From an uncultured virus (IMG/VR IMGVR_UViG_3300035210_000191) (taxonomy: Duplodnaviria > Heunggongvirae > Uroviricota > Caudoviricetes), in IMG/VR virus record IMGVR_UViG_3300035210_000191: a stretch of DNA of 64,000 bases. The stretch is one strand, 5' to 3'. Below are positions 3,593 through 54,935 of the stretch, one piece after another. Below the pieces are notes generated by a model. The model saw only the letters and a program-made list of their open reading frames with translations. It was not told where the DNA came from and made no database searches. The position numbers and the translations under genes are program-made. Position 1 is the stretch's first letter. Each line of letters opens with the position of its first letter.

Positions 3593-4384
3593 TTAACATT
3601 TTAATTTTTCGAGCAGTAATTCCATTTCAGTGACTATCTTAGCCACATCAGACTTATACAAACCAGCCGAACTGATGTTATTCACTTCAATAATTTTTGG
3701 ACCTTTATCAGTTAAAGCAATGTCTATAACAAACGCTTGGCTTGGCGTCCATAAATCAACCATTTCCTGTGCAAATATTAAGGCTTCTTTGTCAATAGCA
3801 TCCGAAGTGATGAGTTGTCCACGTATTTTGTATAAGCTGCCTGTCACTATCTTTCCATCAATAACAAAGAATCGGTATTCAGCCAATATGGTTTTCTTTT
3901 CAGAGATGATTAAGAACTTATCTTTATGAGCATCAGTTATTTTAGTTGAAAGTGCCATTAACAAGTCTTCTTTCTTAAATAATCCACCTGTGATTAATTT
4001 ATCATCTTCCAAGGGGCGAGCAAAAACAGAATCCCAATCTTCTGGTATTTTTATGTCAGTTACCTTTTGTTTAAGGTATTCACCGTTTAACATGTGCTCT
4101 TTTGTCCAGTTTTGTGTCCAACTGGCATAGTTGAAGTTGTCATTTGAAAATGAACCGGGTGAAAACCCTTTCTCAGTCGCCATTCTGGATAGTCGATAAG
4201 ACCCTAACACGAATATGTTCTTTGTGTCCATAGGGTCAAATTTATCAAAAGTGTCTTTAAAATACATATTTTCATCATTTTTGTAAATATCAATTTCGAC
4301 CAATTCAATATTGTTAGATTTCAAGATATTTTTTATATTATCAATACCAACTTCAAAGTTTAAATTGTTTTGTATAACCCACAT
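3593..4384 (-). CDS. ATP-grasp domain protein (DUF4343/R2K-like)
   Basis: FARP, EYRFFVIDGKIVTGSLY, AFVIDIA...KIIEVN motifs. Confidence 0.8.
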   Translation of the reverse strand: MWVIQNNLNFEVGIDNIKNILKSNNIELVEIDIYKNDENMYFKDTFDKFDPMDTKNIFVLGSYRLSRMATEKGFSPGSFSNDNFNYASWTQNWTKEHMLNGEYLKQKVTDIKIPEDWDSVFARPLEDDKLITGGLFKKEDLLMALSTKITDAHKDKFLIISEKKTILAEYRFFVIDGKIVTGSLYKIRGQLITSDAIDKEALIFAQEMVDLWTPSQAFVIDIALTDKGPKIIEVNNISSAGLYKSDVAKIVTEMELLLEKLKC

Positions 4385-6960: not shown

Positions 6961-7632
6961 GTGTTTCCTATTGTGAATGAGAACCATTTGCCCAATAATA
7001 TGATTACAGATCATAGGGCATTTGTTCCATCATTGGATTCTTTATTGAGTGCTGATAGGTTGTTGTCTAATAATCTTTATTTTTCTATGGATAAAGAAAC
7101 ATTTTGCCCATTCATGGAAATGCATGGATATCAGGTAGATAAGACAGTTATGCCAGCAAAAAGCACCACATTAAAATTCACCAACAAAACGACAACTATC
7201 CTTTTTCAAAAGGTGACCATAGACAATAAACGTCTTTTTACTGTTTTAATGATCTCTTACAAAGAGGGCGATGTTCGATCCATCGTCTTTAATTATGACG
7301 GAAGTTTTTATGAGATTACTTATAGAAGTGATAAAGATTTTCATATAGTTAAGAAAACCTCATTATCTCGTTATAATGATGGCACCATTTATTATCAGTT
7401 TTTTGTTCATAATAGTCTTCACTCAAAATGCTATTTATCTTCTTTTTGTTTAAATAAAGGCGTTATTAAAGACGTTTTATACTTTATAAATAACAAATGC
7501 TATCCATTGAACAAACTGTTAAATGCATTAGGTAGACCAGAAATAGATGTCAGTGCTGAAAGCGATTATTTGAAATTAGTTAATTTATTTACTGATGATG
7601 ACGCGATTCTTATCGAAATGGCTATGTGTTAA
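6961..7632 (+). CDS. Hypothetical protein, MxxI C-terminal family
   Basis: Ends LFTDDDAILIEMAMC. Confidence 0.75.
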   Translation: MFPIVNENHLPNNMITDHRAFVPSLDSLLSADRLLSNNLYFSMDKETFCPFMEMHGYQVDKTVMPAKSTTLKFTNKTTTILFQKVTIDNKRLFTVLMISYKEGDVRSIVFNYDGSFYEITYRSDKDFHIVKKTSLSRYNDGTIYYQFFVHNSLHSKCYLSSFCLNKGVIKDVLYFINNKCYPLNKLLNALGRPEIDVSAESDYLKLVNLFTDDDAILIEMAMC

Positions 7633-7654
7633 TATTGCCAAACAGGAGAAATTT

Positions 7655-8464
7655 ATGAAATTGGAACCATTATTTAAACCAGAAGACTATGTTAAAAAAC
7701 CTTTGACAGAGTATGTTATTACACCTGAGATTGCAGAGACATTAAATGAAGTAATGTTTCTTGATATGTTGAAAACAGATTATTTTTTTATGCTCTTTCT
7801 TTTGCCGCTTGGCGATATTGATTCATTTCTTAATAAGTTAGGTTTTAAACGACAAGAAAGATCTGTTTATAAGAATAGTTTAGGTTATCACTTAACTCTA
7901 TCTGTCCGTACATCACCTAAACATAAACAGGGTTATTATTTATCAACCCTTAACTACCCTGATAATGTTAAAAGAATTTCTTTTGAATTTGAGCATATGT
8001 ATAGAATTGACATCTATTACAAGAGTCAAGATGAGCGTTATTCTGAGGGTACATACCCGGTAGACTTTAACTATGTCATAAAACTCGATAAAGAAACTTA
8101 TAATATCATAAGCATTCATCATTCATGCGATCTATTTAATTTAAATCATGTTGAATTGCATACATCTAACTCGCTTAAAACATTTGCACATAAGCTTGAC
8201 TATAATATTCATCGTATTGAAGAAGAACCATTATCAAGTATTACTATTGATGAACAGTTATTCAACAATGTCTCACTATTTGATGTTGTTTATATTATTA
8301 CTTCTGAAACAGATCGTATTCGATCTTTTACCTTATCTGATATTGTTCAAACATGTGGGTTTAGCTTTGATAGGATGATTGGTAATAATATGGAGCACTT
8401 CATGAACATTGAGAACATCTTTGATGAAGATGAACTGAAAGTCATTGAAATGGTTTATATCTAA
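7655..8464 (+). CDS. Hypothetical protein, MxxI family (subfamily A)
   Basis: AGGAG RBS before ATG 7655; ends IFDEDELKVIEMVYI; similar to 9327 and 10111. Confidence 0.8.
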   Translation: MKLEPLFKPEDYVKKPLTEYVITPEIAETLNEVMFLDMLKTDYFFMLFLLPLGDIDSFLNKLGFKRQERSVYKNSLGYHLTLSVRTSPKHKQGYYLSTLNYPDNVKRISFEFEHMYRIDIYYKSQDERYSEGTYPVDFNYVIKLDKETYNIISIHHSCDLFNLNHVELHTSNSLKTFAHKLDYNIHRIEEEPLSSITIDEQLFNNVSLFDVVYIITSETDRIRSFTLSDIVQTCGFSFDRMIGNNMEHFMNIENIFDEDELKVIEMVYI

Positions 8465-8465
8465 T

Positions 8466-9233
8466 CTAGTATCCAAATAAGTTGTCTATCTTTTTGGCAA
8501 GATTTAATCTCATTTTTATGTTTTCATTGTATTCGCTTTTCATGAGTTCTTCTATTGAAAAATCATAAGCCTTTTCACGATCATTAAAGATATGATAACC
8601 TTCTGCTGGTGAGTAGTAGTTGTCTGTAAATTTTAGATTTATCAGTTCTATATTGTCTACATTAAACGCTCTTATGTTAGTTTTTATGCTAATGTTGTTT
8701 TCACTATCGAAAAAAGGCGTCAAGGATTCTATATAAACAGTTTCAAGATTGATTTTCGCTTTATTTCTTAAATCAACAATGTGGATGTAATCATGCACCT
8801 TCATTTCAGATTCATGTATATTCACCATCTTAGTTGTATCATAAATATAAATATCTTTTTTAAAGTAATCGTAGACTTTATTTAACTCTTGTATTCTGTC
8901 TTGATGGTATTTAATTTTATCTTTTTTATCTTTATTTATAAGTGTTGATAAGAAACCTTTGCTCAATTGAGCTATTTCTTCACTGTGATAATCGACTAAA
9001 TTTTTGTGATCCTCTTTGATTAACGAATCAAATTCAGAAATAATATCATTTATTAACCAAAATGAATTTTTATTGCTAGATTGATGGCGTCCAAACTTTT
9101 TCTCAATTTCAAAGATAATACCTTTTTCTATGCTGGCATGATATTTCACAACATAATGAGAGCCATAGGCTTCAAACACGTCTGATAATTTAACTTTTTT
9201 CATATTCATGGGCGGTATCCTTTTCTTAGGCAT
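8466..9233 (-). CDS. Hypothetical protein
   Basis: 255 aa ORF. Confidence 0.7.
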   Translation of the reverse strand: MPKKRIPPMNMKKVKLSDVFEAYGSHYVVKYHASIEKGIIFEIEKKFGRHQSSNKNSFWLINDIISEFDSLIKEDHKNLVDYHSEEIAQLSKGFLSTLINKDKKDKIKYHQDRIQELNKVYDYFKKDIYIYDTTKMVNIHESEMKVHDYIHIVDLRNKAKINLETVYIESLTPFFDSENNISIKTNIRAFNVDNIELINLKFTDNYYSPAEGYHIFNDREKAYDFSIEELMKSEYNENIKMRLNLAKKIDNLFGY

Positions 9234-9326
9234 AGGATAACAAATTAAAAAATAAAATCAACATTTCAATTGATTTATTAAGTAAAATAGTATAATATGG
9301 AGTGAATTATTGGGTGACCATTTTCT

Positions 9327-10097
9327 ATGAATACGATAAAACCTACCAGCCTAGAAGCAGAAATTGAATATCGTTATTTGGAAACACATGTTATTAATGA
9401 AAATAATATGCATGAATACAAAGATAATTTCATTGATATGTTGAAAGATTTTTCTCATATTATAAAATTTGAGTTTAAACGAGCACAATTGAATGACTTT
9501 TTATCATTATTCGGATTTTCGTCTGCAAAAGATACTTTGTCTTTTGACGATGAGCAAGGGTGTAAGATAGCTTTAACTATTCTCGTTGAGGATGAGGTTG
9601 TACAAGACCTCTATGTTTTACAATGGGTTGAATTTACTAAGAATGATCGTTATGAACACAGTTATTTTACATCTTACAATCTACAAGGTGTTGCTGTTTC
9701 TCGGACCTTTAAGTCAGCAAACAAAATATTGAAAGGACTCACCCTTAAAACTATTCATTATATCATAGACCGTGAGACTCTTAAAATTGAGCAAATTGGT
9801 TATTGTTTTAACGATAATAGAAAGCTACAAAAAGGGATTAATGGCTATGTAACAATGATCGTTGAACATCCATTAAAAAGAATTGTTGAACACACTCATT
9901 CATTTGATCATGTAAATATTTATGATGTTTACTATACTGTACATGGGAAATCTAAGGAAATACGACTAATTGATATATTAACCCAGTGTGATTTTAGTTG
10001 TGCTAAAATGTATGGCACCGATTATACTGATTTTCTTAATATGTCTAAAATGTTTACTAAAAGAGAGCGGGACATCATTGAGATGATGTATATCTGA
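9327..10097 (+). CDS. Hypothetical protein, MxxI family (subfamily A)
   Basis: Ends MFTKRERDIIEMMYI; shares LQKGING and VNIYDV with 10111. Confidence 0.8.
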   Translation: MNTIKPTSLEAEIEYRYLETHVINENNMHEYKDNFIDMLKDFSHIIKFEFKRAQLNDFLSLFGFSSAKDTLSFDDEQGCKIALTILVEDEVVQDLYVLQWVEFTKNDRYEHSYFTSYNLQGVAVSRTFKSANKILKGLTLKTIHYIIDRETLKIEQIGYCFNDNRKLQKGINGYVTMIVEHPLKRIVEHTHSFDHVNIYDVYYTVHGKSKEIRLIDILTQCDFSCAKMYGTDYTDFLNMSKMFTKRERDIIEMMYI

Positions 10098-10110
10098 ATA
10101 CGATTAAGGG

Positions 10111-10902
10111 GTGAGAGAGAATATGCCAGAAGCTATTGAAGATGATTACTTATCTAGAATTGAATTTCATTATGTTGATAACTATCTGATCAATAAAGAA
10201 AACTGTGAAGAATACAAACCGCTGGTTATGAATATTATTGAAAGTTCAAATTATTGCTTGAAGTTTGAATTGAACACTGATGAACTCAATCAGTTTTTTA
10301 GTGATCTTGGTTTTGAAGTTAATGAAATTACTTATAGATACAGTAATCACAAAGGCTGTGTACTTGAACTTGCTTCAGCGGTTGTTGATAAAAAAGAGCA
10401 GTCCTATTTTATAATAATTAGTGCATCCTTTGAAAAAGGAATCGAATATTCTTTGTCATATACCCTAAATTTCAATCCGTCAGGACTGCCACGGATGATT
10501 AAATTTGCAAAACCTAAACGATTATTAAAAGATCTTTATTTAAAAAGTATGTCCTATGAAATTGATGACACCACGTTTAAAATCGACCAAATTTGGTATT
10601 TCTTGGAAGACTGCAGACCTTTGCAGAAAGGTATTAATGGCACAGTTCCTATGGTGGTTGAACGCCCCATTAAAAGCATACTTCAAGAAGATGGCACAAC
10701 TTTACACGATGTTAATATTTATGATGTGCATTATTTTGTCTTTAAATCAGGTGAACTGGAATCTATTTTACTGAGTGATATTCTTAAGACATGTGAGATC
10801 AGTGTGACTAAACTGTATGGCAGTAGCTTTACTCATTTTTTAAGAACCAATAAGATGTTTAATAAAAGAGAGCTTGATCTTATCAGAATGGCTTATATTT
10901 GA
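10111..10902 (+). CDS. Hypothetical protein, MxxI family (subfamily A)
   Basis: Ends MFNKRELDLIRMAYI. Confidence 0.8.
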   Translation: MRENMPEAIEDDYLSRIEFHYVDNYLINKENCEEYKPLVMNIIESSNYCLKFELNTDELNQFFSDLGFEVNEITYRYSNHKGCVLELASAVVDKKEQSYFIIISASFEKGIEYSLSYTLNFNPSGLPRMIKFAKPKRLLKDLYLKSMSYEIDDTTFKIDQIWYFLEDCRPLQKGINGTVPMVVERPIKSILQEDGTTLHDVNIYDVHYFVFKSGELESILLSDILKTCEISVTKLYGSSFTHFLRTNKMFNKRELDLIRMAYI

Positions 10903-14884: not shown

Positions 14885-16759
14885 ATGAATATCAATGACA
14901 TCAAATACCCAACAACCGAAGCTGCTTTCATTGAGCTGCTTGAAGATTATAACGATTGCTACCGTAAATCGTTGCCAAAGACTGCCTTGTTTGGTCTTGA
15001 TCCAATTGCCGATGAAAATTATGACGCTGTTGTTGAAGATTTTCGTGCTAAATTCCCTGAATCAACATGGTTTGATGAAATTGAATTGGAAGAAGTGGGC
15101 GAAAACGCTATTACTCACTCTTCTCCTATGCTGTCAACCGAAAAATTCTATACTTCCGAAGCGTTGGCTAAATGGTTTAAACGTGTTGAAGACGTAGCTC
15201 ACGATCTTCATGTGAAATCCATGTATAAAGTTACTTGCAAACTTGATGGTTTTGCGGGTTGCCATGAAACAGAAAAACTGTCCACTCGTGGTGATGGCAT
15301 TCGTGGTAACGACATTACTTACATCTACGATAAAGGTGTTATTCGTAAAGAAAATGCCGAAGGCCGTGGCGAGTTGGTGATTGATAAAACTTATTTTGCA
15401 GAAAACCTTGCTTCGATGTTCCCACATCCACGTAACATGATGAGCAGCGTTTTGTCTCAGGAAGACACACGCCCTGAAACTCAGAAGGCTTTGGATGACG
15501 GTGCGATTCACTTTGTTCCTTATACCACTTTGCAGGCTTATGTTGGCACGGCTGATGACATTCTTGCTAACCTTGAACAAATCAACAACGATTTGCGTGC
15601 TGCGATTCCTTACTTGATTGACGGTTTCGTGATTGAATCCATTGTTCCAGAAATTAAGGAATACATGGGCTACAACAACCATCACAACAAATGGCAGTGT
15701 GCGTTTAAAGAACGTGGTGAAACTGCACAAACTACCGTGCTTGATGTCAAACTTCAAGTCGGTCGCACGGGCACTATCACGCCGGTTCTTGCTGTGGCTC
15801 CTGTGCTTGTGTCGGGTGCAACCATCAGTAACGTAACCGCTCACCACATGAACAACGTTCGCACGAACAAAATGGGTGTAGGTGCTGTCATTGAAATCAT
15901 TCGTAGTGGTGAAGTAATCCCTAAAATTGAAAAAGTGATTACCCAAGCTGAATACGAGGTTCCAACGAACTGCCCTTGCTGTAACACTGTGCTTGAATGG
16001 GAAAGTCACTTCCTTTTCTGCCCTAACCATTCCGGTTGTTCGGAACAAATTAGCCAGACCTTGTTGCACTTCTTTGCAACATTGGCTAACAACGATGGTT
16101 TTGGTGGCAAAACAGTCGCTAAGTTGGTTGAAGCAGGTTTCGACACCTTGGAAAAGATTTACGCCATGAAAGAGCAAGATTTCTTGACCGCAGGTTTTGG
16201 TAAAGGTGAAAGCCCTAACTTGGTCGCCGCTCTTGAAACCAGTAAATCAAGTCAAATTGAAGACTGGCGTTTCCTTGCAGCCTTCGGTATTTCAAGTCTT
16301 GGTAAAGGTGACTCTAAAAAGTTGCTTAAAGTCTTCAATATCGACGCATTGCATGAAGTCGAAGAAGGTAAGTTGATTAAGATGAAAGGTTACGGCAAAG
16401 TGAACAGCGTTATCATTCCAGCCGGTATTCAAGAAAAACTTGAATTGATTAACACCTTGCGTCCTTTGTTCAACCTTGAATTGTCTTCACAAGCAGTTGT
16501 TGACAACGATAGTCCATTCTCTGGTAAGAACGTGGTGGTAACTGGCACAATGGTTAGCTATTCACGTAAAGAGATTGAAGCGTTCTTCACATCGAAAGGT
16601 GCGAAGATTCAAAGCAAAGCAAGCAAGACAACACAAATTCTTGTTTATGGTGAAAGTGCTGGTAGTAAACTCGCTGACGCCCAAGCCTTGAAAGCGAAAG
16701 GTGTTGATATTGAAATCTTGACCGAAGCTGAATTTGTTGCAAAATACATTTCAGTTTAA
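14885..16759 (+). CDS. ligA: NAD-dependent DNA ligase
   Basis: HSSPMLS, KLDG adenylation motif, STRGDG, RGE, IDGFV, QVGRTG, IRSGEVIP, CPCC...C...C zinc finger, HhH repeats, C-terminal BRCT (VVTGT...GSKL). Confidence 0.96.
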   Translation: MNINDIKYPTTEAAFIELLEDYNDCYRKSLPKTALFGLDPIADENYDAVVEDFRAKFPESTWFDEIELEEVGENAITHSSPMLSTEKFYTSEALAKWFKRVEDVAHDLHVKSMYKVTCKLDGFAGCHETEKLSTRGDGIRGNDITYIYDKGVIRKENAEGRGELVIDKTYFAENLASMFPHPRNMMSSVLSQEDTRPETQKALDDGAIHFVPYTTLQAYVGTADDILANLEQINNDLRAAIPYLIDGFVIESIVPEIKEYMGYNNHHNKWQCAFKERGETAQTTVLDVKLQVGRTGTITPVLAVAPVLVSGATISNVTAHHMNNVRTNKMGVGAVIEIIRSGEVIPKIEKVITQAEYEVPTNCPCCNTVLEWESHFLFCPNHSGCSEQISQTLLHFFATLANNDGFGGKTVAKLVEAGFDTLEKIYAMKEQDFLTAGFGKGESPNLVAALETSKSSQIEDWRFLAAFGISSLGKGDSKKLLKVFNIDALHEVEEGKLIKMKGYGKVNSVIIPAGIQEKLELINTLRPLFNLELSSQAVVDNDSPFSGKNVVVTGTMVSYSRKEIEAFFTSKGAKIQSKASKTTQILVYGESAGSKLADAQALKAKGVDIEILTEAEFVAKYISV

Positions 16760-19611: not shown

Positions 19612-20262
19612 ATGAAAACATCTACGGCTTATGCTTCGGAAAATACAATCTCTACCCGATTGTATAATTTTATCATTGGTGCTGTATTGCTGTATGGTTT
19701 TTTGATGAACGTTTTTATCGTTAAAACCGTTCCAGTAGCCAGTCTGTTGTCCATCAATATTTGGGTTTTCTTGATTGGTTATTTTGCAAGCTGCTTGTTT
19801 GGTATTTATTTGTTTACTAAATCTGATAACGCTCTTGTCAGTTTTATCGGGTTTAACTTTGTGGCAGTGCCATTTGGTTTGATTGTGAATATGGTCACTT
19901 CACAGTATTCACCTGAGCTGGTTATCAATGCCATGCAGGTTACAACAGTGGTTACGTGTATCATGATGGTGTTGGGCACTGCCTATCCTAAGTTCTTTGA
20001 AAGTATTGCATCAGGTCTGTTTTGGGGTTTGCTGGCATCTATCATTGCTGAATTGATTTTGACCTTTGTGTTTAAAATGGACTTGGGCATTATGGATTGG
20101 ATTATTGCCGCTATCTTCTGTGGTTACATCGGTTATGATTGGGGTAAGGCTTCTGCACTCCCTAAAACAGTCGATAACGCCGTAGACTCAGCAGCCGCTC
20201 TGTATATGGATATTATCAACCTGTTCTTGCGAATCCTCAGTATTATGGGCAAGAAAGACTGA
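19612..20262 (+). CDS. Bax inhibitor-1/YccA-family membrane protein
   Basis: About 7 TM segments; YIGYD and AAALYMDIINLFLRILSI C-terminal signature. Confidence 0.88.
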   Translation: MKTSTAYASENTISTRLYNFIIGAVLLYGFLMNVFIVKTVPVASLLSINIWVFLIGYFASCLFGIYLFTKSDNALVSFIGFNFVAVPFGLIVNMVTSQYSPELVINAMQVTTVVTCIMMVLGTAYPKFFESIASGLFWGLLASIIAELILTFVFKMDLGIMDWIIAAIFCGYIGYDWGKASALPKTVDNAVDSAAALYMDIINLFLRILSIMGKKD

Positions 20263-20327
20263 TAAAATGAGTAATGTTTACGGATGGCTTCGGCCATCCG
20301 TTTTTATATCTAATGGAGTAATTTTTG

Positions 20328-21059
20328 ATGAATGAAATCATTGATGAAGAAAAAAAGAAGAATTGTCCAATTAATGGACTACTTGATTATTTCGTTAGTA
20401 ATTTTACTGACAAAAATTATGAGTATGGAAGAGATCAAATGGGCATCTGTCGGTATCCTTTAAATTCTGAAGGTAAGCGTATTGTGGAGCAACTTGAAGA
20501 AGATCGCTTTACTTATGGTTTGGATGGTTGCACAGCCATTAAGTCTGAATCAATTGTTCCTTTTCGTAAAGGTGATACACCAAGTTCTATTTATTTTAAT
20601 ATTTCGACAAAATATGATGATATTTATTCTGAACATTTTGGTGATTTGTCGTCTCCAATGATAGATTTATTTGTAGAACATACCAATAACCACTTAGATT
20701 TAATTAATCAAAAGAAAATTTCAGACGATTATCAATTTCTTATATGTAAAGACTTTTCATATGATGCGATATTTAAATATGATCAAATCACCCAAAAAAT
20801 TACAAGAGTTTTATCTATTGTTTTTAGAAGAAACAATACATCATCCGAACAAAATCGTAACGTTCATTGTATTACTGACAACATATTAACCACTCAGGCT
20901 ACATTAAAACACATGGATAGTGAGTTTTTTAATCGTTATTACAAAGAAAAAATAAAAGAAGCCTATCCCGATTTGAGTTATGAACAAGTGTATGAGTTAT
21001 TGGATCTTTCAAAATGGAATGAACATTTAAAATCTCTTGTAAAAATGACATACTATTGA
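20328..21059 (+). CDS. Hypothetical protein, MxxI family (subfamily C)
   Basis: YEYGRD...RYPL...GKRI; ends HLKSLVKMTYY. Confidence 0.8.
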   Translation: MNEIIDEEKKKNCPINGLLDYFVSNFTDKNYEYGRDQMGICRYPLNSEGKRIVEQLEEDRFTYGLDGCTAIKSESIVPFRKGDTPSSIYFNISTKYDDIYSEHFGDLSSPMIDLFVEHTNNHLDLINQKKISDDYQFLICKDFSYDAIFKYDQITQKITRVLSIVFRRNNTSSEQNRNVHCITDNILTTQATLKHMDSEFFNRYYKEKIKEAYPDLSYEQVYELLDLSKWNEHLKSLVKMTYY

Positions 21060-21093
21060 TATAATTAATTAAATAAAAAAAGGCTTATTTCTT

Positions 21094-21786
21094 ATGATAA
21101 AAGCAAGCATGTATGGAAATGACAATAAGTTAAAAGAACTGGGTCACTTATTTTCTAAATTTTCGAATCAAGACTATCAATATGGGCAGGATGGATTGTC
21201 TGTTGTCCGTTATCCACTCACCCCTGATGGTAAGCGAATTCATATGTATGAAGTTAATCGCTGGGATGGGGATATTCGTGGCTATGACAAGTCTTACAAC
21301 GTTGCAAATATCATTACATCTAACTGGGATTATGATTTTGATGTTTCTTTTGTTTTAACATCGGAGCAAAATGATAACGGAAAACCTATTAAGTTTGATT
21401 ATCTCTACAAATTTCATTCTAATGAGTTTTTCGTTCGGTTGAAAAAACACTTAAAACTTTTGAATGATTCTCCTGAAATGCATAGAAAACGCGAATTGGT
21501 TGAGTTTGAATCTACCCGATTTAAAGTGTCTATATTCTATCGTTATGATATTTCTACTAAAATTGTTAGCCGTTGTGCAGAGCTTAAGTTTAAAGCCTTC
21601 AATGGAATGCTGGAACATAGGATTACTGTTCTTAATGATGATCATAGATTTTTAGCAGCAATGGATGAAATGGAGCAGGAATTTCAAGAGCGTTATTATC
21701 GTAATATAATTGAACGTAAAAAAATTGAACGTGGTTCTTTTTTAAATAAAACCGAACAAAATCTTATTAAAATGGTTTATTACTAA
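21094..21786 (+). CDS. Hypothetical protein, MxxI family (subfamily C)
   Basis: YQYGQD...RYPL...GKRI; ends EQNLIKMVYY. Confidence 0.8.
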   Translation: MIKASMYGNDNKLKELGHLFSKFSNQDYQYGQDGLSVVRYPLTPDGKRIHMYEVNRWDGDIRGYDKSYNVANIITSNWDYDFDVSFVLTSEQNDNGKPIKFDYLYKFHSNEFFVRLKKHLKLLNDSPEMHRKRELVEFESTRFKVSIFYRYDISTKIVSRCAELKFKAFNGMLEHRITVLNDDHRFLAAMDEMEQEFQERYYRNIIERKKIERGSFLNKTEQNLIKMVYY

Positions 21787-21790
21787 TATT

Positions 21791-22459
21791 ATGGATATAG
21801 GAAAATTTGAATTACCTGATAATATGGCGTCCTTTAACTACTACTTAAAGCACTCAGCCAGCAATGTGAATTATAGATATCAAATATCTGCGGGGTACAC
21901 TATTGTTCAGGAAGCTTTAAATACAGATGGCACGCCAAAAATAAGGGCAGGTTATGATAGGTATCATGCTATTGGTAATCTTACTTATTTTCAACATGAC
22001 TCTGAGCATGAGTGTTCTTTCGACATAAAACCCAATCTATTATCAAAAAAAGAATCGCCTAGAAAAGTCTATTTTGAGAATGTTGATGATTATTATGCCA
22101 AACAATTTTTCAAATTGATTACCAATCATCTTCGTCTTATAAATATGGGAGACGAAATCAATAAAAAGAAAAATCCAGTGTATGCTAACCTTGATCATAT
22201 CGAAATTTATCCAGTCTATGTTTATCATTCATTACATGGAAATATCTATCAAAAAATAATTGTAAAATTTAAAAAGAATAAAGAGTTCCCAGAGCTTTAT
22301 ATTATTGTAAAAAATAATGCCTATAGTTTTGAGAATGCAGTTAAAATGATTGACAATGAATTTTTTATTAGATACTATTCACAACTTATTGAGAAAAAGG
22401 ACACGACAGAGAAGCTTACTAAATCAGAAAAGCAAATCGTTAAGATGTATTACTATTGA
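21791..22459 (+). CDS. Hypothetical protein, MxxI family (subfamily C)
   Basis: DNEFFIRYY; ends SEKQIVKMYYY. Confidence 0.8.
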   Translation: MDIGKFELPDNMASFNYYLKHSASNVNYRYQISAGYTIVQEALNTDGTPKIRAGYDRYHAIGNLTYFQHDSEHECSFDIKPNLLSKKESPRKVYFENVDDYYAKQFFKLITNHLRLINMGDEINKKKNPVYANLDHIEIYPVYVYHSLHGNIYQKIIVKFKKNKEFPELYIIVKNNAYSFENAVKMIDNEFFIRYYSQLIEKKDTTEKLTKSEKQIVKMYYY

Positions 22460-22468
22460 GGGCTTTTT

Positions 22469-23089
22469 ATGATTAAGGATTTTAACCGTTTTTTAAGAGA
22501 TAAATTAGACAACCAGAAACACACTTACACACATTGTGAAGGTGAAATATATCGTCATTCTAATCAAATAACATTTGATAAAGCCATGAGTGAAAATAAC
22601 TTTATTATTGTGGGTGAAGCTTTTTTCCATCTTGATAAAGAGACGGTAGACCAATATGACATGTTTTTCATGAATACTGTAAAATTTAATTCAAAAGCGA
22701 TGGCTGAGCATAATTTAATCATGGACTACTCTGAACACATTCAGACTCGAAAACTATTTTTAGCTTTCTTGGAAAATGTTCGTCTCATTGAAAAACATAA
22801 AAGACATCCAGATAAGTATACATTAGAGACAAAAAGTTTTTATTATAGTAATGTATTTTATTTTAGATCTGACAACAGTAAGCCGCTCGCATTACCTTAC
22901 TTAACGATGCAAACGCCAACAGGATACATTCAACTTGAATTCAATCACAATCAACTTCAAAATGTCAATGAACAAATAAGGGTTATCAATGAAACCTTCC
23001 GAGAGTATTATTTTAAACACGTTCTTGATAAGACGGTTACTGAGATGTCTGACGATGAAAAGAAAGCTGTGATTATGTTTTATCAATAG
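22469..23089 (+). CDS. Hypothetical protein, MxxI family (subfamily C, divergent)
   Basis: NETFREYY; ends MSDDEKKAVIMFYQ. Confidence 0.75.
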   Translation: MIKDFNRFLRDKLDNQKHTYTHCEGEIYRHSNQITFDKAMSENNFIIVGEAFFHLDKETVDQYDMFFMNTVKFNSKAMAEHNLIMDYSEHIQTRKLFLAFLENVRLIEKHKRHPDKYTLETKSFYYSNVFYFRSDNSKPLALPYLTMQTPTGYIQLEFNHNQLQNVNEQIRVINETFREYYFKHVLDKTVTEMSDDEKKAVIMFYQ

Positions 23090-23111
23090 AAAAAGAGGCC
23101 GAAGCCTCTTT
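23090..23111. terminator. Bidirectional intrinsic terminator
   Basis: AAAAAGAGGC-CGAA-GCCTCTTT between convergent genes. Confidence 0.8.
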
Positions 23112-23132
23112 AATTCTCAGTGGTGTTGATTG

Positions 23133-24311
23133 TTATGGTTTAATTTCTCTAACTTCTTTGACAGAACCACGATTGACGACAAAACTAATCACACCTTCAC
23201 TGTCATATTTACTTTGTTCAGCTTCACCGACTACAATAATCTCAGGAACACCGCGTTCTTTCCAGTATCGGATCTTCTTCCCTAATGAATCAGCACTTTG
23301 ATCCAGCTTAGATGATTTCTTATCCAGATGAGAAAATACGACCTTTGCATACTCCATAGATTTTTCGGATACTGGAATAACCACTGATTTCATAGGGTGT
23401 AAGAAGTCAGGTATGTCTTTACCAAAGGACTCCAACAAGATCCCTATCATGCGTTCAAGTGAACCTAATACGGCATGGTGGAGAATAATAGGACGCTTAG
23501 GTTTGTTATCGGCATCAATGTATTCAAGTCCAAACCGTTCTGGAAGAACATAATCGAGCTGTATCACACCTAATTGCCATGATCTACCGAGTTTGTCTTC
23601 GACTTGGAGTTCAAGTTTCGGGCCATAGAAAGCCCCGTCATTTTCGTTCTCTACGAAATCAAGGTTATTCATTCTGCAGGCTTCTCGTAAGGCTTCTTCT
23701 GCTTTATCCCATAAGCTGTCATCACCAAATCTTTTCTCTGGACGTAAAGCAATGGCGTATTTAATCTTTTTGAATCCGAGTTCTTCATATGCTTTCTGGC
23801 TCATCTGTATGTATTGATTGACCGAACTGATTAGATTTTCTTCGTTCACAAACACATGACTATCATCCTGACAAAATTGTCTTTGTCTGAATAATACTTG
23901 TAAAGCACCAGACGCTTCATTACGAAACACTTCACCAAATTCAAATATTGGTAATGGGAGTTCACGGTAGCTTCTTTTTTCTGATTGGTATATTAGGATA
24001 TGGTTGGGACAGCTCATAGGACGGAGAGCGTAGTTACTGGCTTCTGATGAATTGAGAAAGAACATGTTGTCTTTGTATTTATCCATATGACCAGATTGTT
24101 CAAATAAGCTAGGTACCACAATAGATGGACTCTTAACTTCAAGATAACCGGCGTCTTCATGGTGTTTACGGATAAAAGATTTTAAATTCTCATACAATTT
24201 AAGACCTTCTGGTTTCCAGTAAACAACACCTGCACTTTCAGCCAACATGAATAAGTTCATTTCTTTGGCAACTTGCATGTATCTCTTTTCTTCGTTTAAT
24301 TTGTCGTTCAT
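23133..24311 (-). CDS. thrS: Threonyl-tRNA synthetase, short form lacking the N-terminal TGS and editing domains
   Basis: SGHMDKY, LRPMSCPNH, FRNEASGAL, RQFCQDDSH, GAFYGPK, WQLGVIQLDY, HHAVLGSLER and anticodon-binding domain; only 392 aa. Confidence 0.95.
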   Translation of the reverse strand: MNDKLNEEKRYMQVAKEMNLFMLAESAGVVYWKPEGLKLYENLKSFIRKHHEDAGYLEVKSPSIVVPSLFEQSGHMDKYKDNMFFLNSSEASNYALRPMSCPNHILIYQSEKRSYRELPLPIFEFGEVFRNEASGALQVLFRQRQFCQDDSHVFVNEENLISSVNQYIQMSQKAYEELGFKKIKYAIALRPEKRFGDDSLWDKAEEALREACRMNNLDFVENENDGAFYGPKLELQVEDKLGRSWQLGVIQLDYVLPERFGLEYIDADNKPKRPIILHHAVLGSLERMIGILLESFGKDIPDFLHPMKSVVIPVSEKSMEYAKVVFSHLDKKSSKLDQSADSLGKKIRYWKERGVPEIIVVGEAEQSKYDSEGVISFVVNRGSVKEVREIKP

Positions 24312-24361
24312 TTTATTTCCCCTTGATGGTTTAGTTTGTGTTAATCATTTATTTTTGACAT

Positions 24362-24389
24362 AAAAAAACCCAGCCGTTTAGCTGGGTTT
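24362..24389 (-). terminator. Attenuator terminator upstream of thrS
   Basis: Minus strand AAACCCAGC-TAAACG-GCTGGGTTTTTTT. Confidence 0.85.
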
Positions 24390-24406
24390 GTGTGGTTCCG
24401 ATTATT

Positions 24407-24484
24407 TTAAGACAGCAACAATCGACCAGCCCAGCTATTGAACTGAGTTGTTGTAGTCGTTGTGTTTGCTGCAAATAATTTCAT
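24407..24484 (-). CDS. thrS leader peptide MKLFAANTTTTTTQFNSWAGRLLLS
   Basis: GGAG RBS, ATG, six consecutive Thr codons, TAA; lies directly upstream of the terminator and thrS. Confidence 0.88.
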   Translation of the reverse strand: MKLFAANTTTTTTQFNSWAGRLLLS

Positions 24485-24546
24485 CTGAATTTTCTCCAAT
24501 TACTTATATTGTGATCTTTATTTTCAAAAATGTCAACTATTATTTT

Positions 24547-24846
24547 TTAATCTATTGGTTTATTGGTTTCGTATTTTTTTATTTCTTTTCCATAAAAATA
24601 ACTTATTATAAAAAATATTGTTGGAATAATTACACCAATAACCCATCCTGCAACCAAACTCCAAAAAAGCCATGTTTCGTGCTTGTTAAACAAAGGATAG
24701 TCGATTAACTGATAATAATAATAAGTGAGAAAAGACATAACAACAAATCCAACAATTGCGTCAATAGATGTAGTCATTTTAAAATCTTCAGCCTCAGTTT
24801 TTTCCTTAGTTAAATCTTCTTCTGTTATTTTTTCTAGTTTATTCAT
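24547..24846 (-). CDS. Small membrane protein (2 TM)
   Basis: GGAG RBS; two hydrophobic segments. Confidence 0.65.
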   Translation of the reverse strand: MNKLEKITEEDLTKEKTEAEDFKMTTSIDAIVGFVVMSFLTYYYYQLIDYPLFNKHETWLFWSLVAGWVIGVIIPTIFFIISYFYGKEIKKYETNKPID

Positions 24847-25073
24847 TTTATACTCCAATATCGTTGTTTTAGCTTAGCTTATTTTAATTATTAAACAAGT
24901 AATTTTAAACAAAAAAGAATATAATTAACTATAAAATCATCTATTGTCAACTTTGACGTTACAATAAGCTGTTTATCTTTTTTCATTGTCTTGCGTTGTT
25001 AACTTTGTTGAAGACTTGTTGTTAAAACTTAATTTTTATGTTATTATAGTGTTCTTATTAGGAGAATATAATC

Positions 25074-25457
25074 ATGCTTCCAAAATTTATCTCAGATCTG
25101 TTGTGGCCTGAAATTGTTCCTTTACCTACTGCATTGGTTGAAACCTACCGAGTAGAAGTTGACGCCATCTTAACTGCATGTAATGTTCCCGGTTTTAAGG
25201 TGTCTGACAATACTAAAATTTCTAGTTTATTCTATACATCAAGTCATAGTGCAATGACTATTGGCATGAGTCCGAGAACTTATACTGAAAGTCAGTTGAA
25301 CGATAATAAAATGGATGCTTTGAAAGCTTTCGCTGAGGTTGTTAAACTGTTTGATGGTGTATCTCTTGTTTCGCTTGAAGATAAAGTGGTTAATCTAGCC
25401 AAATATTTGCACGAATATAAACTTACCATAGAAATGGAAAAAGAATCGGTTGAATAG
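25074..25457 (+). CDS. Hypothetical protein, probable paralog of 31233-31568
   Basis: AGGAG RBS; VETYRVEVDAILTACNVPGFKVSDNTKISSLF. Confidence 0.7.
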   Translation: MLPKFISDLLWPEIVPLPTALVETYRVEVDAILTACNVPGFKVSDNTKISSLFYTSSHSAMTIGMSPRTYTESQLNDNKMDALKAFAEVVKLFDGVSLVSLEDKVVNLAKYLHEYKLTIEMEKESVE

Positions 25458-25465
25458 TTCTTTTT

Positions 25466-26176
25466 TTAAATATAAACCATATCTTTAACTTTAAAGTAAT
25501 CCAATAATTCTTCATTTTTATTATTGATAATGTTGTTTATGTAGTATTCAATATTATCAATATCTTCATCATTTGCACTGTAATATAAGAGTGTAATCAA
25601 ATAATCTAGTTGTGTATGGTTAAAACTAATAAAGCCAGTCGTTGTATTATCATCTCCATCGTTTTGGATCTCAGTAGATAGAATTTCATTTTCTTTATTG
25701 ATATTAAGCATAATTCTCATCTTCTTATTTTGATTCTTGCCACCATAACGAATTGTTAAAAAATCTTGATTATTGAATGAAATTTGCATAATTACTACCT
25801 TAGATTTATACACTATAACAATAGTACTGTTTACATCATTAAACAAATGAATCTCGGCTTTCTTAAATTGTTCTGGTAGATTGTTTTCGTATTGTAATCC
25901 TAGGCGTTTATGAGCCTGTTCAAACATACCTTGAACAAATTTATTATATATTTTTGAATTTTTGTTTTGTTCATCCGAATGTGTGGTATGATCTTTTCCA
26001 TTAACAAGTGGTATTGTTAATGGTGTTGATTTATCATTTGCTATGAGCATTTGATTCATGACTTTATGATAAGTATTGAAAAATACGTCAAAATAGTGTT
26101 GCATATTTGTAATATGATTTTCTAATAATATTTCAAATGCTGGTGGTGTGGCTATATCTATGGTGACATATTTCAT
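25466..26176 (-). CDS. Hypothetical protein, MxxI family (subfamily D)
   Basis: HTQLDYLI; ends LLDYFKVKDMVYI. Confidence 0.8.
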   Translation of the reverse strand: MKYVTIDIATPPAFEILLENHITNMQHYFDVFFNTYHKVMNQMLIANDKSTPLTIPLVNGKDHTTHSDEQNKNSKIYNKFVQGMFEQAHKRLGLQYENNLPEQFKKAEIHLFNDVNSTIVIVYKSKVVIMQISFNNQDFLTIRYGGKNQNKKMRIMLNINKENEILSTEIQNDGDDNTTTGFISFNHTQLDYLITLLYYSANDEDIDNIEYYINNIINNKNEELLDYFKVKDMVYI

Positions 26177-26191
26177 TTGAATAAACCTCTA

Positions 26192-26986
26192 TTAAATATA
26201 AATCATCTCTTTAAGTTTTATATAATTTATAAAATCTTCATAGTTTTCTGCGAGAATATCATCGACGTATTTTTCTGTAATAAAATCAATTTCCTCACCA
26301 TCAGCGTAGTGGCTGAGCACAATAAGATAATCTAATTGTTGATGGTTTAAAGTAATCATATCTGTTTCATCTGATCGTGCATTATTAAAATTAAAGTAAA
26401 CTTCTGTTGAGATAATTTCAGTGTTGTGATTAATAGTAATGTCCAACATCATTTTATTGCTGTCACAACTATTTAGCATATAGACAATATTCAATCCATT
26501 TTTATCAAAATTTATACACATCATGATAGGTTTTGTAAAATAGGTGACACTTATCTTAGCATTGTCAAAAAAGTGAGAAAAAATAACGTCAGCTTTTTTA
26601 TGATTGTCTTTAATATATTCCACAAATGTTAAATTACTTCTAGCATGTGCCTTTTTAACAAGGTTCTCAATAAAATCCATGTAGACAGTAGAGTTCTGAT
26701 TTTTTACATCTGTATATTCCGTGCAATCATCTTTATCAGGAGCGTGATAAATTCGAACGTCAGCGAATTTTTTATTCGTTTCTTTTAGATATTGAGTAAC
26801 TTTATCTTTAACATTTAAGCACGCTGAAAAATAATATCTGATATTTGGGGTAATAATATCCAATAAATTTTTAAAATCTTCATTTTCTGTTTTTACAGTT
26901 AAATATTTGTTCTCAACACCCTTACTAGATGTCTCATCAAAGATATGTTTTGGACTGAGTTTTTTTATAATATATTGATTTGTCAT
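26192..26986 (-). CDS. Hypothetical protein, MxxI family (subfamily D)
   Basis: HQQLDYLI; ends FINYIKLKEMIYI. Confidence 0.8.
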   Translation of the reverse strand: MTNQYIIKKLSPKHIFDETSSKGVENKYLTVKTENEDFKNLLDIITPNIRYYFSACLNVKDKVTQYLKETNKKFADVRIYHAPDKDDCTEYTDVKNQNSTVYMDFIENLVKKAHARSNLTFVEYIKDNHKKADVIFSHFFDNAKISVTYFTKPIMMCINFDKNGLNIVYMLNSCDSNKMMLDITINHNTEIISTEVYFNFNNARSDETDMITLNHQQLDYLIVLSHYADGEEIDFITEKYVDDILAENYEDFINYIKLKEMIYI

Positions 26987-27711
26987 ATGTAAGTCATCTC
27001 TTTTACTTTAAAATAATCAATTACATCTTTATAGTTTTCGGCTAACACCTTATCAATATATGGTTCTACATTAAAATCGTTCTCTTCGACCATGCCATAA
27101 TGACATAAAGCAATAAGATAATCTAGCTGTTTATGACTTAATTTTATCTTTTCTGGCTCTTTATAAATTTTACCATTAAAGTGAACAATTGTTGATAATA
27201 TTTCATTATTTTCATTTATTTTTATTTCTATCATCATTTTATTACTGTCATTATTGTTAATTTTGTAGACAATAACCAAACCAGTTTCAGTAAATGTAAA
27301 AAGAGTGCTAATTGTTTGAGTGTGATAATTTATTTCTATTTTTGGGCGATTGAATAGATAGCAAATATCCATATAACCTTTTCGAGCATTTGATGGTAAA
27401 TGTTCATAATAATTGAGGTCATTTCTAGCATGAGATTGTTTTAATAATTGACTAATGAAATTATAATATATTCTATCATCACGATTCTCGACATCACAAT
27501 ATTCACGGTGACTTCCTTTTTCTGGATTTGCATACATATTAATCATATCAATGTGTATACCTGCCAGAATAAGTTTTTTAACAACTTCTTTAATTTTAGT
27601 TTCATTGTTAAACCAATTTGAAAAATAATAACTCATATTAATTTGACTGACATCGAACAATTCATCAAATTCTAAAAGATCATTCTGGACTATTGTGTAT
27701 TTTTCATTCAT
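26983..27711 (-). CDS. Hypothetical protein, MxxI family (subfamily D)
   Basis: HKQLDYLI; ends VIDYFKVKEMTYI. Confidence 0.8.
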   Translation of the reverse strand: MNEKYTIVQNDLLEFDELFDVSQINMSYYFSNWFNNETKIKEVVKKLILAGIHIDMINMYANPEKGSHREYCDVENRDDRIYYNFISQLLKQSHARNDLNYYEHLPSNARKGYMDICYLFNRPKIEINYHTQTISTLFTFTETGLVIVYKINNNDSNKMMIEIKINENNEILSTIVHFNGKIYKEPEKIKLSHKQLDYLIALCHYGMVEENDFNVEPYIDKVLAENYKDVIDYFKVKEMTYI

Positions 27712-34102: not shown

Positions 34103-34179
34103 CGGAGTGTAGGTCAGCCCGGTAGACCGCTTGCTTTGGGAGCAAGATGCCGCAGGTTCAAATCCTGCCACTCCGACCA
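34103..34179 (+). tRNA. trnP: tRNA-Pro(TGG)
   Basis: Cloverleaf: CGGAGTG/CACTCCG acceptor, CTTGC-TTTGGGA-GCAAG anticodon arm, GGTTCAAATCC T-arm, encoded CCA. Confidence 0.95.
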
Positions 34180-34228
34180 ATTTTAAAAAGTAGAGTAACT
34201 GTGTTGCTCTATTGTTTTCTAAAGAGTT

Positions 34229-34303
34229 TGAAGGGTAGCTCAGTGGGTAGAGCAGCCTGCATTTTGGGCGGGTATGTCGGAGGTTCAAATCCTTCCTCTT
34301 CAA
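34229..34303 (+). tRNA. Atypical or pseudo tRNA (anticodon TTT or TTG)
   Basis: TGAAGGG/CTCTTCA acceptor, GCTC/GAGC D-arm, GGAGG-TTCAAAT-CCTTC T-arm; anticodon arm enlarged by 2 nt; no encoded CCA. Confidence 0.7.
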
Positions 34304-34358
34304 CATTATTACATAAATCTTATACTTCTATAAGGTTTATTTTTTTTGAGGTCTTGTT

Positions 34359-40893: not shown

Positions 40894-41802
40894 ATGTATA
40901 TGTTCGGAAATGCTTTTATGATACTACTATTAGTCGGATTAATAGGACTATTAGTTTACTCATGTGTTGTTTTGACCAAAAACAAACATGTTTCAGTAAT
41001 TGTTACATTTGGTAAGTTTTCTGCCATCAAAGAAGCTGGTTTGTCTTTCAAACTTCCTTGGCCGATTCAAGCTGTTGATAAAGTTGTTCCTTTGAACATT
41101 TTACAATTGAGCACTGTGCTTGAATTGAAAACTAATGACAACTTATTTATTAAATACCCAATAAACGTTCAGTACCATGTACTTGATGCCGAAAAAGCGG
41201 CTTATGAACTTGATGACCCAGAAACACAAATCATCAGTTATGTTAGCAACCTTGTTCGTTCCGAAGTGGGTAAGAAAACATTCTTAGAACTTTATAGCGT
41301 CCGTGATGAAATTCAAGATGTCATTGAAGAAGTATTGTCTAAAAAGATGGAAGAATTTGGTTTCAAAATTGTTGCTGTTCTCGTTGATGAACCAATTCCA
41401 ACCAGTGATGTTCAAGACTCATACAACTCAGTAACTGCATCTGAGCGTGAAAAAGAAGCTGCCAAGAACCGTGCAGAAGCTTCAAGAATTACTATTGTTG
41501 CAGAAGCTCAGGCACAAAAAGAGTCTAAGAAATTACAAGGTGAAGGTATTGCGGATCAACGTCTTGCTATTAGCCGTGGTTTTAATGAAGCAATTGAAAA
41601 TCTTTCTTCTTCATTGAACATTTCTAATGAAATGGCAGTAGCTATGATTCTTCAATTGAACAAATTTGACACATTACGTGATGTTGCAAACGGTAAAGGT
41701 TCTCTCATTATCAGTGACGCAGGCACTAACGCTGAACTTAAAGAGTTGACTAGTTTGGTAGCCGGTTTGAGATCTACTGAGTTGGGTCACCACAAAGTTT
41801 AA
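40894..41802 (+). CDS. SPFH/band-7 (stomatin-like) membrane protein
   Basis: N-terminal TM; FGKF...GLSFKLPWPI, KTNDNLF, AEAQA...LQGEGIADQR. Confidence 0.9.
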   Translation: MYMFGNAFMILLLVGLIGLLVYSCVVLTKNKHVSVIVTFGKFSAIKEAGLSFKLPWPIQAVDKVVPLNILQLSTVLELKTNDNLFIKYPINVQYHVLDAEKAAYELDDPETQIISYVSNLVRSEVGKKTFLELYSVRDEIQDVIEEVLSKKMEEFGFKIVAVLVDEPIPTSDVQDSYNSVTASEREKEAAKNRAEASRITIVAEAQAQKESKKLQGEGIADQRLAISRGFNEAIENLSSSLNISNEMAVAMILQLNKFDTLRDVANGKGSLIISDAGTNAELKELTSLVAGLRSTELGHHKV

Positions 41803-45007: not shown

Positions 45008-45032
45008 AAAAAAGGCACTTAGGTGCCTTTTT
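45008..45032. terminator. Bidirectional intrinsic terminator
   Basis: AAAAAGGCAC-TTAG-GTGCCTTTTT, overlapping the stop of the 45019 ORF. Confidence 0.75.
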
Positions 45033-45477: not shown

Positions 45478-45495
45478 GATTTTATCTTTTTTATT

Positions 45496-46367: not shown

Positions 46368-46478
46368 GAGGACACATCTTTGATTGTTGTTTATATTATT
46401 ATAATATGTAGTTGTTCTTTTACAATCAAATAAACTAAAAAAAGACACATAAGTGCCTTTTAAATATTATTGTTGTTT

Positions 46479-54917: not shown

Positions 54918-54935
54918 TGATAGGAAACATAAAAA

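Follow-up and report, generated by a model that had tools for sequence, protein, structure and literature searches.

A putative leader-peptide attenuator with six threonine codons in front of a short, threonine-free threonyl-tRNA synthetase gene in an uncultured virus record

Leader-peptide attenuation is textbook control for amino acid biosynthesis operons, as in the trpL and thrL systems, and thrL itself controls the biosynthesis genes thrABC and counts isoleucine codons as well as threonine codons. For aminoacyl-tRNA synthetases, such attenuation is to our knowledge known essentially from pheST. The Escherichia coli pheST attenuator, with its pheM leader peptide, is the textbook attenuated synthetase operon, and its product, phenylalanyl-tRNA synthetase (PheRS), is a housekeeping enzyme and, as far as we know, not free of phenylalanine. 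In Bacillus subtilis, thrZ encodes a second, full-length threonyl-tRNA synthetase (ThrRS), which is controlled by a T-box riboswitch and induced when the charging of threonine tRNA falls. Described here is a locus on the minus strand of the IMG/VR virus record IMGVR_UViG_3300035210_000191, a stretch of 64,000 nucleotides (nt) referred to below as the window, in which a gene for a short ThrRS (thrS) lies behind a leader containing six consecutive threonine codons. From its sequence, this leader region very likely acts as a transcription attenuator through which the supply of Thr-tRNA(Thr) governs thrS, a single-gene unit.

The locus resembles each of the systems above in part. Like pheST, it has a synthetase gene behind a short leader rich in codons for the enzyme's own amino acid, with terminator and antiterminator as alternatives, but the amino acid, the sequence, and the taxa differ. 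Like thrL of E. coli and Salmonella, it has leader-peptide threonine codons that would sense Thr-tRNA(Thr) and gate an intrinsic terminator. Since the Thr_leader model (RF00506) gave no match at E <= 10 when positions 22000-26000 were searched with cmscan, the window leader was deemed to be an analog of thrL rather than a member of its family. The likeness to thrZ is that of a spare ThrRS switched on by a leader sensing uncharged or scarce tRNA(Thr); thrZ, however, uses a T-box, whereas none was present at the window locus, the T-box model likewise giving no match at E <= 10 in the same cmscan search of 22000-26000. The initial annotation of the locus, which was made from the letters alone, had set it apart from T-box control, and this distinction held, as no T-box or other Rfam family matched above threshold. 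The best leader-type Rfam match, Phe_leader (RF01859), scored 22.2 bits (gathering score, 55; E = 1.9) and was treated as chance. According to the available passages of PMC9437257, the ThrRS T2 of Anabaena is a duplicated, stress-induced enzyme that works when the housekeeping enzyme fails and yields Ser-tRNA(Thr) (see also Rubio et al. 2015; PMC4787780). In these passages it differs from the window enzyme in being induced by zinc shortage and not through a Thr-codon leader, and a threonine-free composition is not among the properties that the passages of PMC9437257 report. Neither T2 nor ThrZ is known for a run of Thr codons in its leader or for lacking threonine.

The features of the locus are as follows.

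24508-24536, minus strand: sigma-70-like promoter, TTGACA at 24536-24531, 17-nt spacer, CACAAT at 24513-24508 (10/12 matches)
24497-24494, minus strand: Shine-Dalgarno sequence GGAG of the leader open reading frame (ORF), 9 nt 5' of the ATG by direct reading
24484-24407, minus strand: leader ORF of 25 codons plus stop (TAA), translated as MKLFAANTTTTTTQFNSWAGRLLLS
24463-24446, minus strand: six consecutive Thr codons, ACA ACG ACT ACA ACA ACT, the proposed stall site
24441-24447, minus strand: core of segment 1, CUCAGUU, from minimum free energy (MFE) folds
24420-24436, minus strand: segment 2, 5' half of the antiterminator, AGCUGGG CU GGUCGAUU, from the pair list
24380-24403, minus strand: segment 3, 3' half of the antiterminator, AAUCGGAACC ... 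CCCAGCU
24389-24366, minus strand: stem of the intrinsic terminator, AAACCCAGCU / AAAC / GGCUGGGUUU, with a T7 run ending at 24362
24319-24324, minus strand: AAGGGG, Shine-Dalgarno-like site of thrS
24311-23133, minus strand: thrS ORF, 392 codons
23111-23092, minus strand: terminator-like hairpin 3' of thrS, AAAGAGGC UUCG GCCUCUUU, with a U-rich tail

The order given in the initial annotation, namely TTGACA, GGAG, a 25-amino-acid (aa) leader with six Thr codons, a GC hairpin with a U-tract, and thrS, was recovered in full at the same minus-strand places. The annotation had added that the ORF track misses the leader, which is true at the default length cut-off, but the frame is listed as a 30-aa ORF with a TTG start at 24407-24499. 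The thrS ORF begins 50 nt past the leader U-tract, and the hairpin at 23111-23092 closes the unit, from which thrS was deduced to be a single-gene unit. The choice of Thr codons mirrors the general usage in the window (ACA 379, ACT 343, ACC 173, and ACG 108), so the leader run contains no rare codons. The six frames of the window hold 794 short ATG-started ORFs (10-60 aa), of which 5 contained at least 5 identical residues running, and the leader was the sole one whose run was of Thr, which makes chance an unlikely explanation for the leader. Shine-Dalgarno-like motifs precede 40 of the 76 window ORFs, compared with approximately 13% by a rough estimate from base composition, and the host was therefore taken to be bacterial.

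The pairing that had been suggested between AGCTGGG..GGTCGATT and AATCGGAACC..CCCAGCT proved exact. The antiterminator (2:3) consists of AGCUGGG:CCCAGCU together with GGU/CGAUU paired to AAUCG/ACC, for a total of 15 Watson-Crick pairs, and the duplex of segment 2 with the terminator 5' arm was calculated at -13.0 kcal/mol, compared with -7.6 +/- 2.0 kcal/mol in shuffles. Segment 2 begins 9 nt past the Thr run, the leader stop codon sits within the antiterminator loop, and the last 7 nt of segment 3 are the 5' arm of the terminator. The terminator has 10 pairs (5 GC) and the loop AAAC, with an energy of -14.5 kcal/mol. In the free RNA, the MFE structure of the 151-nt leader combines a 1:2 structure with the terminator (-39.2 kcal/mol; z = -3.4 versus dinucleotide shuffles). 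In the MFE folds, this 1:2 structure is made up of CUCAGUU bound to the AGCUGGG of segment 2 and of the stretch of Thr codons bound to GGUCGAUUGUUGCUG. The 50-nt stretch 5' of the thrS ATG, where a translational operator of the E. coli thrS type would place its anticodon-arm-like hairpins, is A/U-rich and has no stem evident by eye, the folds having run only 12 nt past the U-tract (to 24350).

In the proposed mechanism, for which we infer stalling, the switch, the activity of the enzyme, and a second, canonical ThrRS in the host, transcription would start approximately 16 nt 5' of the leader ATG and a ribosome would translate the 25-codon leader as RNA polymerase advances. When Thr-tRNA(Thr) is plentiful, the ribosome would reach the UAA (24409-24407), inside the loop of the would-be antiterminator, so that segments 2 and 3 could not close, the hairpin at 24389-24366 with its U7 run would form, and transcription would end at about 24362. 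When Thr-tRNA(Thr) is scarce, the ribosome would stall in the six Thr codons and cover segment 1 (the Thr codons plus CUCAGUU) while leaving segment 2 exposed; for Thr codons 1-4 in the A site, this means that segment 1 would be covered and AGCUGGG free. The freed segment 2 (AGCUGGG..GGUCGAUU) would then pair with segment 3 (AAUCGGAACC..CCCAGCU) once the latter is made, which would remove the 5' arm of the terminator and let the polymerase read into thrS. As its product contains no threonine, thrS can probably be not only turned on but also translated once charged threonine tRNA is exhausted.

Relatives of the locus were sought with the family-specific stretch FRQRQFCQDD, which was written as a degenerate DNA pattern and occurs once in the window against an expectation of none. 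This pattern found 24 metagenome loci and one IMG/VR locus, the latter duplicating L081. Upstream DNA was present for 23 of the 24 metagenome loci (L090 had none) and three others repeat an upstream sequence exactly, giving a set of 22 distinct upstream regions with the window's own counted. A short ORF with 5-10 consecutive Thr codons was found in all 22, at loci of 21-67% GC, so that the Thr run, whose conservation upstream of homologs the initial annotation had singled out as a check, is a constant feature of this set. Under a strict rule, a hairpin with a T-run terminator was found in 21 of the 22, and the remaining one (L104) has a GC hairpin with a T3 tail. In each of the 21 loci compared, the best partner of the terminator 5' arm lies 0-21 nt past the Thr run, and the antiterminator z-scores relative to dinucleotide shuffles were all negative (mean, -2.39; p <= 0.05 in 12).

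The paired sequences vary by lineage yet stay complementary, as in AGCUGGG:CCCAGCU, ACACUGGG:CCCAGUG, UCUGGCUU:AAGCCAG, and GCCUGCCCGGGCC with a GC-rich partner. Among 10 low-GC relatives, 88.4% of the cells of the outer antiterminator helix were paired, compared with 18-49% for slid partners, and 2 pairs were changed on both sides; for the terminator of the same relatives, 96% of the cells were paired, again with 2 pairs changed on both sides. L091 and L096, two close relatives, share the promoter box of the window, and 9 of the 22 leaders have a promoter-like box by the rule applied here. Promoter, leader, and terminator are retained in L091 and L096 although the sequence 5' of the promoter differs from that of the window, from which it was deduced that the module travels with thrS and not with the upstream gene. 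In seven relatives (L085, L089, L093, L099, L100, L101, and L104) a -10-like box lies merely 5-8 nt 5' of the leader start and no Shine-Dalgarno sequence is visible, which suggests that the leader peptide is translated leaderless in several relatives.

In a control set of 80 canonical full-length thrS loci taken from species genomes, the 400 nt upstream contained no short ORF with a run of at least 4 Thr. The ORFs of all 80 measured 497-687 aa, the shortest being cut by contig ends, and their cores contained 9-22 Thr. The ThrRS genes of cultured phages, namely that of Sinorhizobium phage Phosso and that of a Vibrio phage record (thrS-infC-rpmI-rplT), are full length, normal in threonine, and without such a leader. 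A sample of 401 genomes from one phylum yielded no occurrence of the pattern, a blastn comparison of the locus with 50,697 phage records gave no match, and a single-protein scan of IMG/VR found no relative. In an alignment-based scan of GTDB genome contigs, the matches listed were canonical ThrRS only, at 39-45% identity; these served as controls and have no bearing on the absence of the short clade. The classification of the region as a thrL/trpL-type attenuator, as first proposed, is thus supported by a translatable leader with cognate codons, a terminator, a mutually exclusive antiterminator, a 1:2 hairpin, and conservation with co-variation.

A distant version of the module is carried by the published 636-kb huge phage LR756504.1 (L131, 953-2530). 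In it, the leader MTTIIRNMNNNINRTRTTLGLSDKVLSFMKR and a strong terminator are followed by genes for tRNA-Thr(GGU), for a ThrRS of 386 aa containing a single Thr, and for tRNA-Asn(GUU) and tRNA-Thr(UGU). Its leader is a mixture of Thr, Ile, Asn, and Arg, with codons that echo the tRNAs behind it, and looks closer to thrL in composition than the window leader does.

The product of the window thrS gene matched only PF00587 (class II core) and PF03129 (anticodon-binding domain) in Pfam. Against the thrS equivalog TIGR00418 it scored 394.2 bits (cut-off, 383.65) over profile positions 173-535 of 565, and by Pfam and this coverage, no TGS or editing (tRNA_SAD) domain was found in the 392-aa protein. 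The best match among solved structures was 6vu9 (318 bits), with alignments running from residue 9-11 to 366-367; the aligned part of E. coli ThrRS (1qf6) is residues 242-601, and residues 11-366 of the protein align to residues 3-360 of 1EVK (295 bits). The motifs RPMSCPNH, QDDSHVF, and LHHAVLGSLER line up with their counterparts in solved ThrRS and presumably carry the Cys/His/His zinc ligands of the active site known from the E. coli structure literature. The protein is accordingly predicted to be a naturally short ThrRS made up of a catalytic core and an anticodon domain, without TGS and editing domains. The same minimal form, core plus anticodon domain, is found in the engineered E. coli delta-N ThrRS (PDB 1EVK/1EVL, 401-aa chains) and in the yeast mitochondrial ThrRS (PDB 3UGQ; PMC4267643). 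The former, however, is an engineered truncation and the latter is organellar, and neither is reported to be Thr-free or attenuator controlled.

No Thr was found among the 392 residues of the enzyme (binomial P, ~5e-10). The 76 ORFs of the window average 5.3% Thr, and the next-poorest contains 1.5%. Where the solved enzymes have Thr, the window enzyme has Cys, Val, or Ser, as FTQDD is replaced by FCQDD, GTxQLD by GVIQLD, and KTGH by QSGH. A search of 5.8 billion proteins gave relatives of approximately 385 aa at 57-99% identity, and among 120 listed homologs, 53 had no Thr, 48 had one, 10 had two, and 9 had at least three. With no Thr codons in its gene, the enzyme could be synthesized independently of the missing aminoacyl-tRNA, and it is read here as a spare or "emergency" ThrRS.

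The window DNA was found in peat metagenome runs, and RNA-labelled runs carry 4-15% of the sampled words, the run data being contigs from which starts, ends, and expression levels are not readable. Two RNA-library contigs from one study, belonging to relatives 90-97% alike, cross the thrS start, the terminator, and the leader (24276-24497 and 24311-24485). A relative's RNA-library contig stops at 24497, compared with DNA contigs that reach 24514 before diverging. Such contigs would be in keeping with transcripts that start near 24500 and read through the terminator, which we take as a weak hint. DNA runs X8-X18, filed under a single coded organism name ("organism A", 2023-2024), carry 29-40% of the sampled words, and the contigs of run X8 are mostly 90-99% alike across thrS and the leader (window 23100-24514); a close relative may exist in culture or in a host-associated sample.

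Several of the results weigh against the attenuator as described. Folding with and without the ribosome footprint, as the initial annotation had proposed, gave the 1:2 structure plus terminator for the free RNA, but the equilibrium folds with a masked ribosome were ambiguous and split by codon. The MFE structure was the antiterminator for a ribosome whose A site held Thr codon 1 or 4 and still the terminator for one holding Thr codon 2, 3, 5, or 6, and the energies lay within approximately 5 kcal/mol. Equilibrium folds therefore do not decide the switch, and the model rests, like the textbook attenuators, on co-transcriptional kinetics and the order of synthesis. With the ribosome masked at the stop codon, the outer 2:3 helix was still drawn around the footprint, an arrangement that is presumably impossible for steric reasons. 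The -10 box, CACAAT, is poor. Taken individually, the antiterminator had p > 0.05 in 9 of the 21 loci, and the helices vary little inside the low-GC group, so that most of the co-variation comes from distant lineages that are not alignable column by column. Finally, the RNA-library contigs may stem from contaminating DNA, and they show neither ends, strand, nor regulation.

Three other explanations of the locus were weighed. The first, that the hairpin is a plain terminator of the upstream ORF at 24858-24547, that the Thr-rich ORF is an untranslated accident, and that thrS is unregulated or expressed by read-through, has in its favour that the hairpin lies approximately 160 nt past the stop of this same-strand 103-aa ORF and that the latter has a TTG start and matches no family. 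It is hard to reconcile with the retention of leader, terminator, and antiterminator in 22 of 22 relatives whose upstream genes differ, with a promoter-like site between the upstream ORF and the leader, with the absence of any such ORF from the 80 canonical thrS loci, and with the single Thr run in the 794 short window ORFs, and we judge it to be highly improbable. The short ThrRS could instead be an inhibitor-resistant paralog serving in self-defence or resistance and induced when the sensitive housekeeping enzyme is blocked. The available passages of PMC5388404 describe resistant synthetase paralogs acquired by horizontal transfer and place ThrRS among the targets of natural toxins, and the attenuator would be expected to answer a fall in Thr-tRNA(Thr) whatever its cause, a blocked housekeeping enzyme included. 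This proposal, however, leaves the absence of Thr unexplained (53 of the 120 listed homologs, with one Thr in 48 more), and there is no biosynthetic gene cluster nearby, 65 of 75 window ORFs having no Pfam match and the rest being unrelated; it appears doubtful to us.

A third possibility keeps the same attenuation as the means of sensing but changes the pay-off from restored threonine charging to deliberate mistranslation. The module would then mainly make Ser-tRNA(Thr), as the editing-less enzyme would mischarge under threonine shortage and ribosomes would pass Thr codons with serine. A precedent is the stress-induced Anabaena T2 ThrRS, given as a Ser-tRNA(Thr) producer in the passages of PMC9437257. 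Also consistent with it are the lack of editing and TGS domains in the enzyme, the lack of a tRNA_SAD match both in a syntenic 437-kb relative and among the 75 window ORFs scanned, and the replacement of Thr largely by Ser (33 Ser, 0 Thr). Set against these are the intact zinc-ligand motifs, which leave threonine as the expected substrate. The zinc ligands set the threonine specificity of ThrRS. Moreover, nothing in the sequence gauges serine charging and the host could supply editing, so that we regard Ser-tRNA(Thr) as the main product as unlikely, although less so than the resistance function.

For the attenuator that senses Thr-tRNA(Thr), the known part is the classical switching logic, and the new parts are its target, the Thr-free enzyme, and the carrier. 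With a Thr-free enzyme, the production of ThrRS no longer depends in a circle on the Thr-tRNA that is in short supply, and the locus would make a clean and testable example of regulation and protein composition having been selected for one and the same emergency. The leader would also constitute a compact, portable Thr-tRNA sensor of approximately 175 nt. The literature searched gave no account of a Thr-leader thrS or of a Thr-free ThrRS, with the proviso that such synthetases may appear, without further remark, in Supplementary Tables 6 and 7 of PMC7162821. We tentatively raise the wider possibility that a giant and mostly unannotatable bacterial element, possibly a huge phage, carries "starvation-proof" synthetases lacking their own amino acid, with its ThrRS wired to a codon-counting attenuator, and could thereby restart or loosen (Ser for Thr) translation after a collapse of Thr-tRNA. 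If this were true, the ThrRS (0 Thr) and the TyrRS of the syntenic 437-kb relative (2 Tyr among 419 residues) would belong to such a set, and starvation, infection load, or tRNA-directed defence could be the cause of the collapse. Should the carrier prove to be a huge phage or a comparable element, the module would illustrate how elements of this type keep watch on host translation and mend it. According to the available text of PMC7162821, as many as 15 synthetases are found in huge phages, and in the literature searched, no description was found of the control of huge-phage synthetase genes.

The nature of the carrier was approached through its gene content. The window, a low-GC region in which most genes resist annotation, is collinear with a 437-kb IMG/VR record (G001), in which 40 of the 76 ORFs were matched and the ThrRS is 83.5% identical. 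This record contains approximately 26 tRNA genes, DnaK, TilS, GatA/B, TyrRS, TrpRS, SerRS, RNA ligases, PNK, and TnpB copies, and also carries EmrAB-type efflux genes and a chemoreceptor, an inventory that resembles the one described for huge phages in the available text of PMC7162821. No 16S rRNA, Terminase_6N, Phage_capsid, or tRNA_SAD match was found in it, and none of 75 large ORFs matched the annotated PHROG head, portal, sheath, or terminase families. Pfam and PHROG matches were lacking for 65 and 69 of the 75 window ORFs, respectively, and Pfam matches were lacking for 61 of the 64 ORFs flanking the thrS genes of relatives. The recognisable genes of the window are those for PNKP, an NAD-dependent ligase, R2K ATP-grasp, DsbA-like, Bax1-I, SPFH, SerRS, and two tRNAs. 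That thrS is element encoded, as first claimed, is therefore best described as plausible, the synteny with the 437-kb record favouring it, although no capsid or terminase was recognised. Relatives of the ThrRS at 72-98% identity lie on contigs of 0.29-1.86 Mb, and near-identical ones on contigs of up to 1.86 Mb (the 1.86-Mb contig carries a 98% copy), a length that exceeds the 735 kb given for the largest phage genome in the available text of PMC7162821. The contigs behind L096, L086, and L087 measure 1.46-1.86 Mb, and the low-GC ones have flanks lacking recognisable genes; these contigs could be chromosomes, huge elements, or assembly concatemers.

Other synthetase and tRNA genes of the window and of the 437-kb record are given below.

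55748-57019, plus strand: SerRS, 423 aa
34103-34304, plus strand: tRNA-Pro(UGG) and tRNA-Lys(UUU), directly behind a near-consensus promoter (TTGACA, 17 nt, TATTAT)
437-kb record, L120:3050-4309, plus strand: TyrRS
437-kb record, L128:14625-15620, plus strand: TrpRS

Depletion of a synthetase in its own amino acid may not be confined to the ThrRS. The TyrRS of the 437-kb record has 2 Tyr among 419 residues (binomial P, ~1e-7) and is alone at <= 0.5% Tyr among the 107 ORFs of at least 300 aa. Upstream of it, a promoter-like site was seen along with an ORF of 15 codons whose last residue is Tyr, with no clear Tyr run and no strong terminator. The TrpRS of the same record, which has no Trp, was rejected as a case of depletion (P = 0.11; 18 of the 107 large ORFs also have none). 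The window SerRS was likewise rejected as a second self-depleted or leader-controlled synthetase, since its 22 Ser of 423 residues are ordinary and just 47 nt lie upstream, which leaves no room for a leader. No leader ORF was found behind the promoter of the tRNA-Pro/tRNA-Lys pair (34103-34304). In the tRNA cluster of the 437-kb record (L126), ARAGORN calls an anticodon CUA (printed as tRNA-Pyl), a possible amber suppressor.

The remaining features of the window are the following.

294-1478, plus strand: PNKP-type polynucleotide kinase-phosphatase
14885-16759, plus strand: NAD-dependent DNA ligase
3593-4384, minus strand: R2K ATP-grasp protein
19612-20262, plus strand: Bax1-I family protein
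40894-41802, plus strand: SPFH/Band 7 protein
2678-3514, minus strand: DsbA/ScsC-like thioredoxin
7595-10902, 20325-22459, 25466-27711, 45019-46919, and 53406-55700: five tandem paralogous ORF families of 3-4 members each, with no assigned function

Taken together, PNKP, the ligases, and R2K look like an RNA or tRNA repair kit of the kind described for huge phages in the available text of PMC7162821. The 437-kb record adds T4 Rnl1-like and DRB0094-type RNA ligases. The Bax1-I, SPFH/Band 7, and DsbA/ScsC-like genes are of a membrane or envelope type that is unusual in phage.

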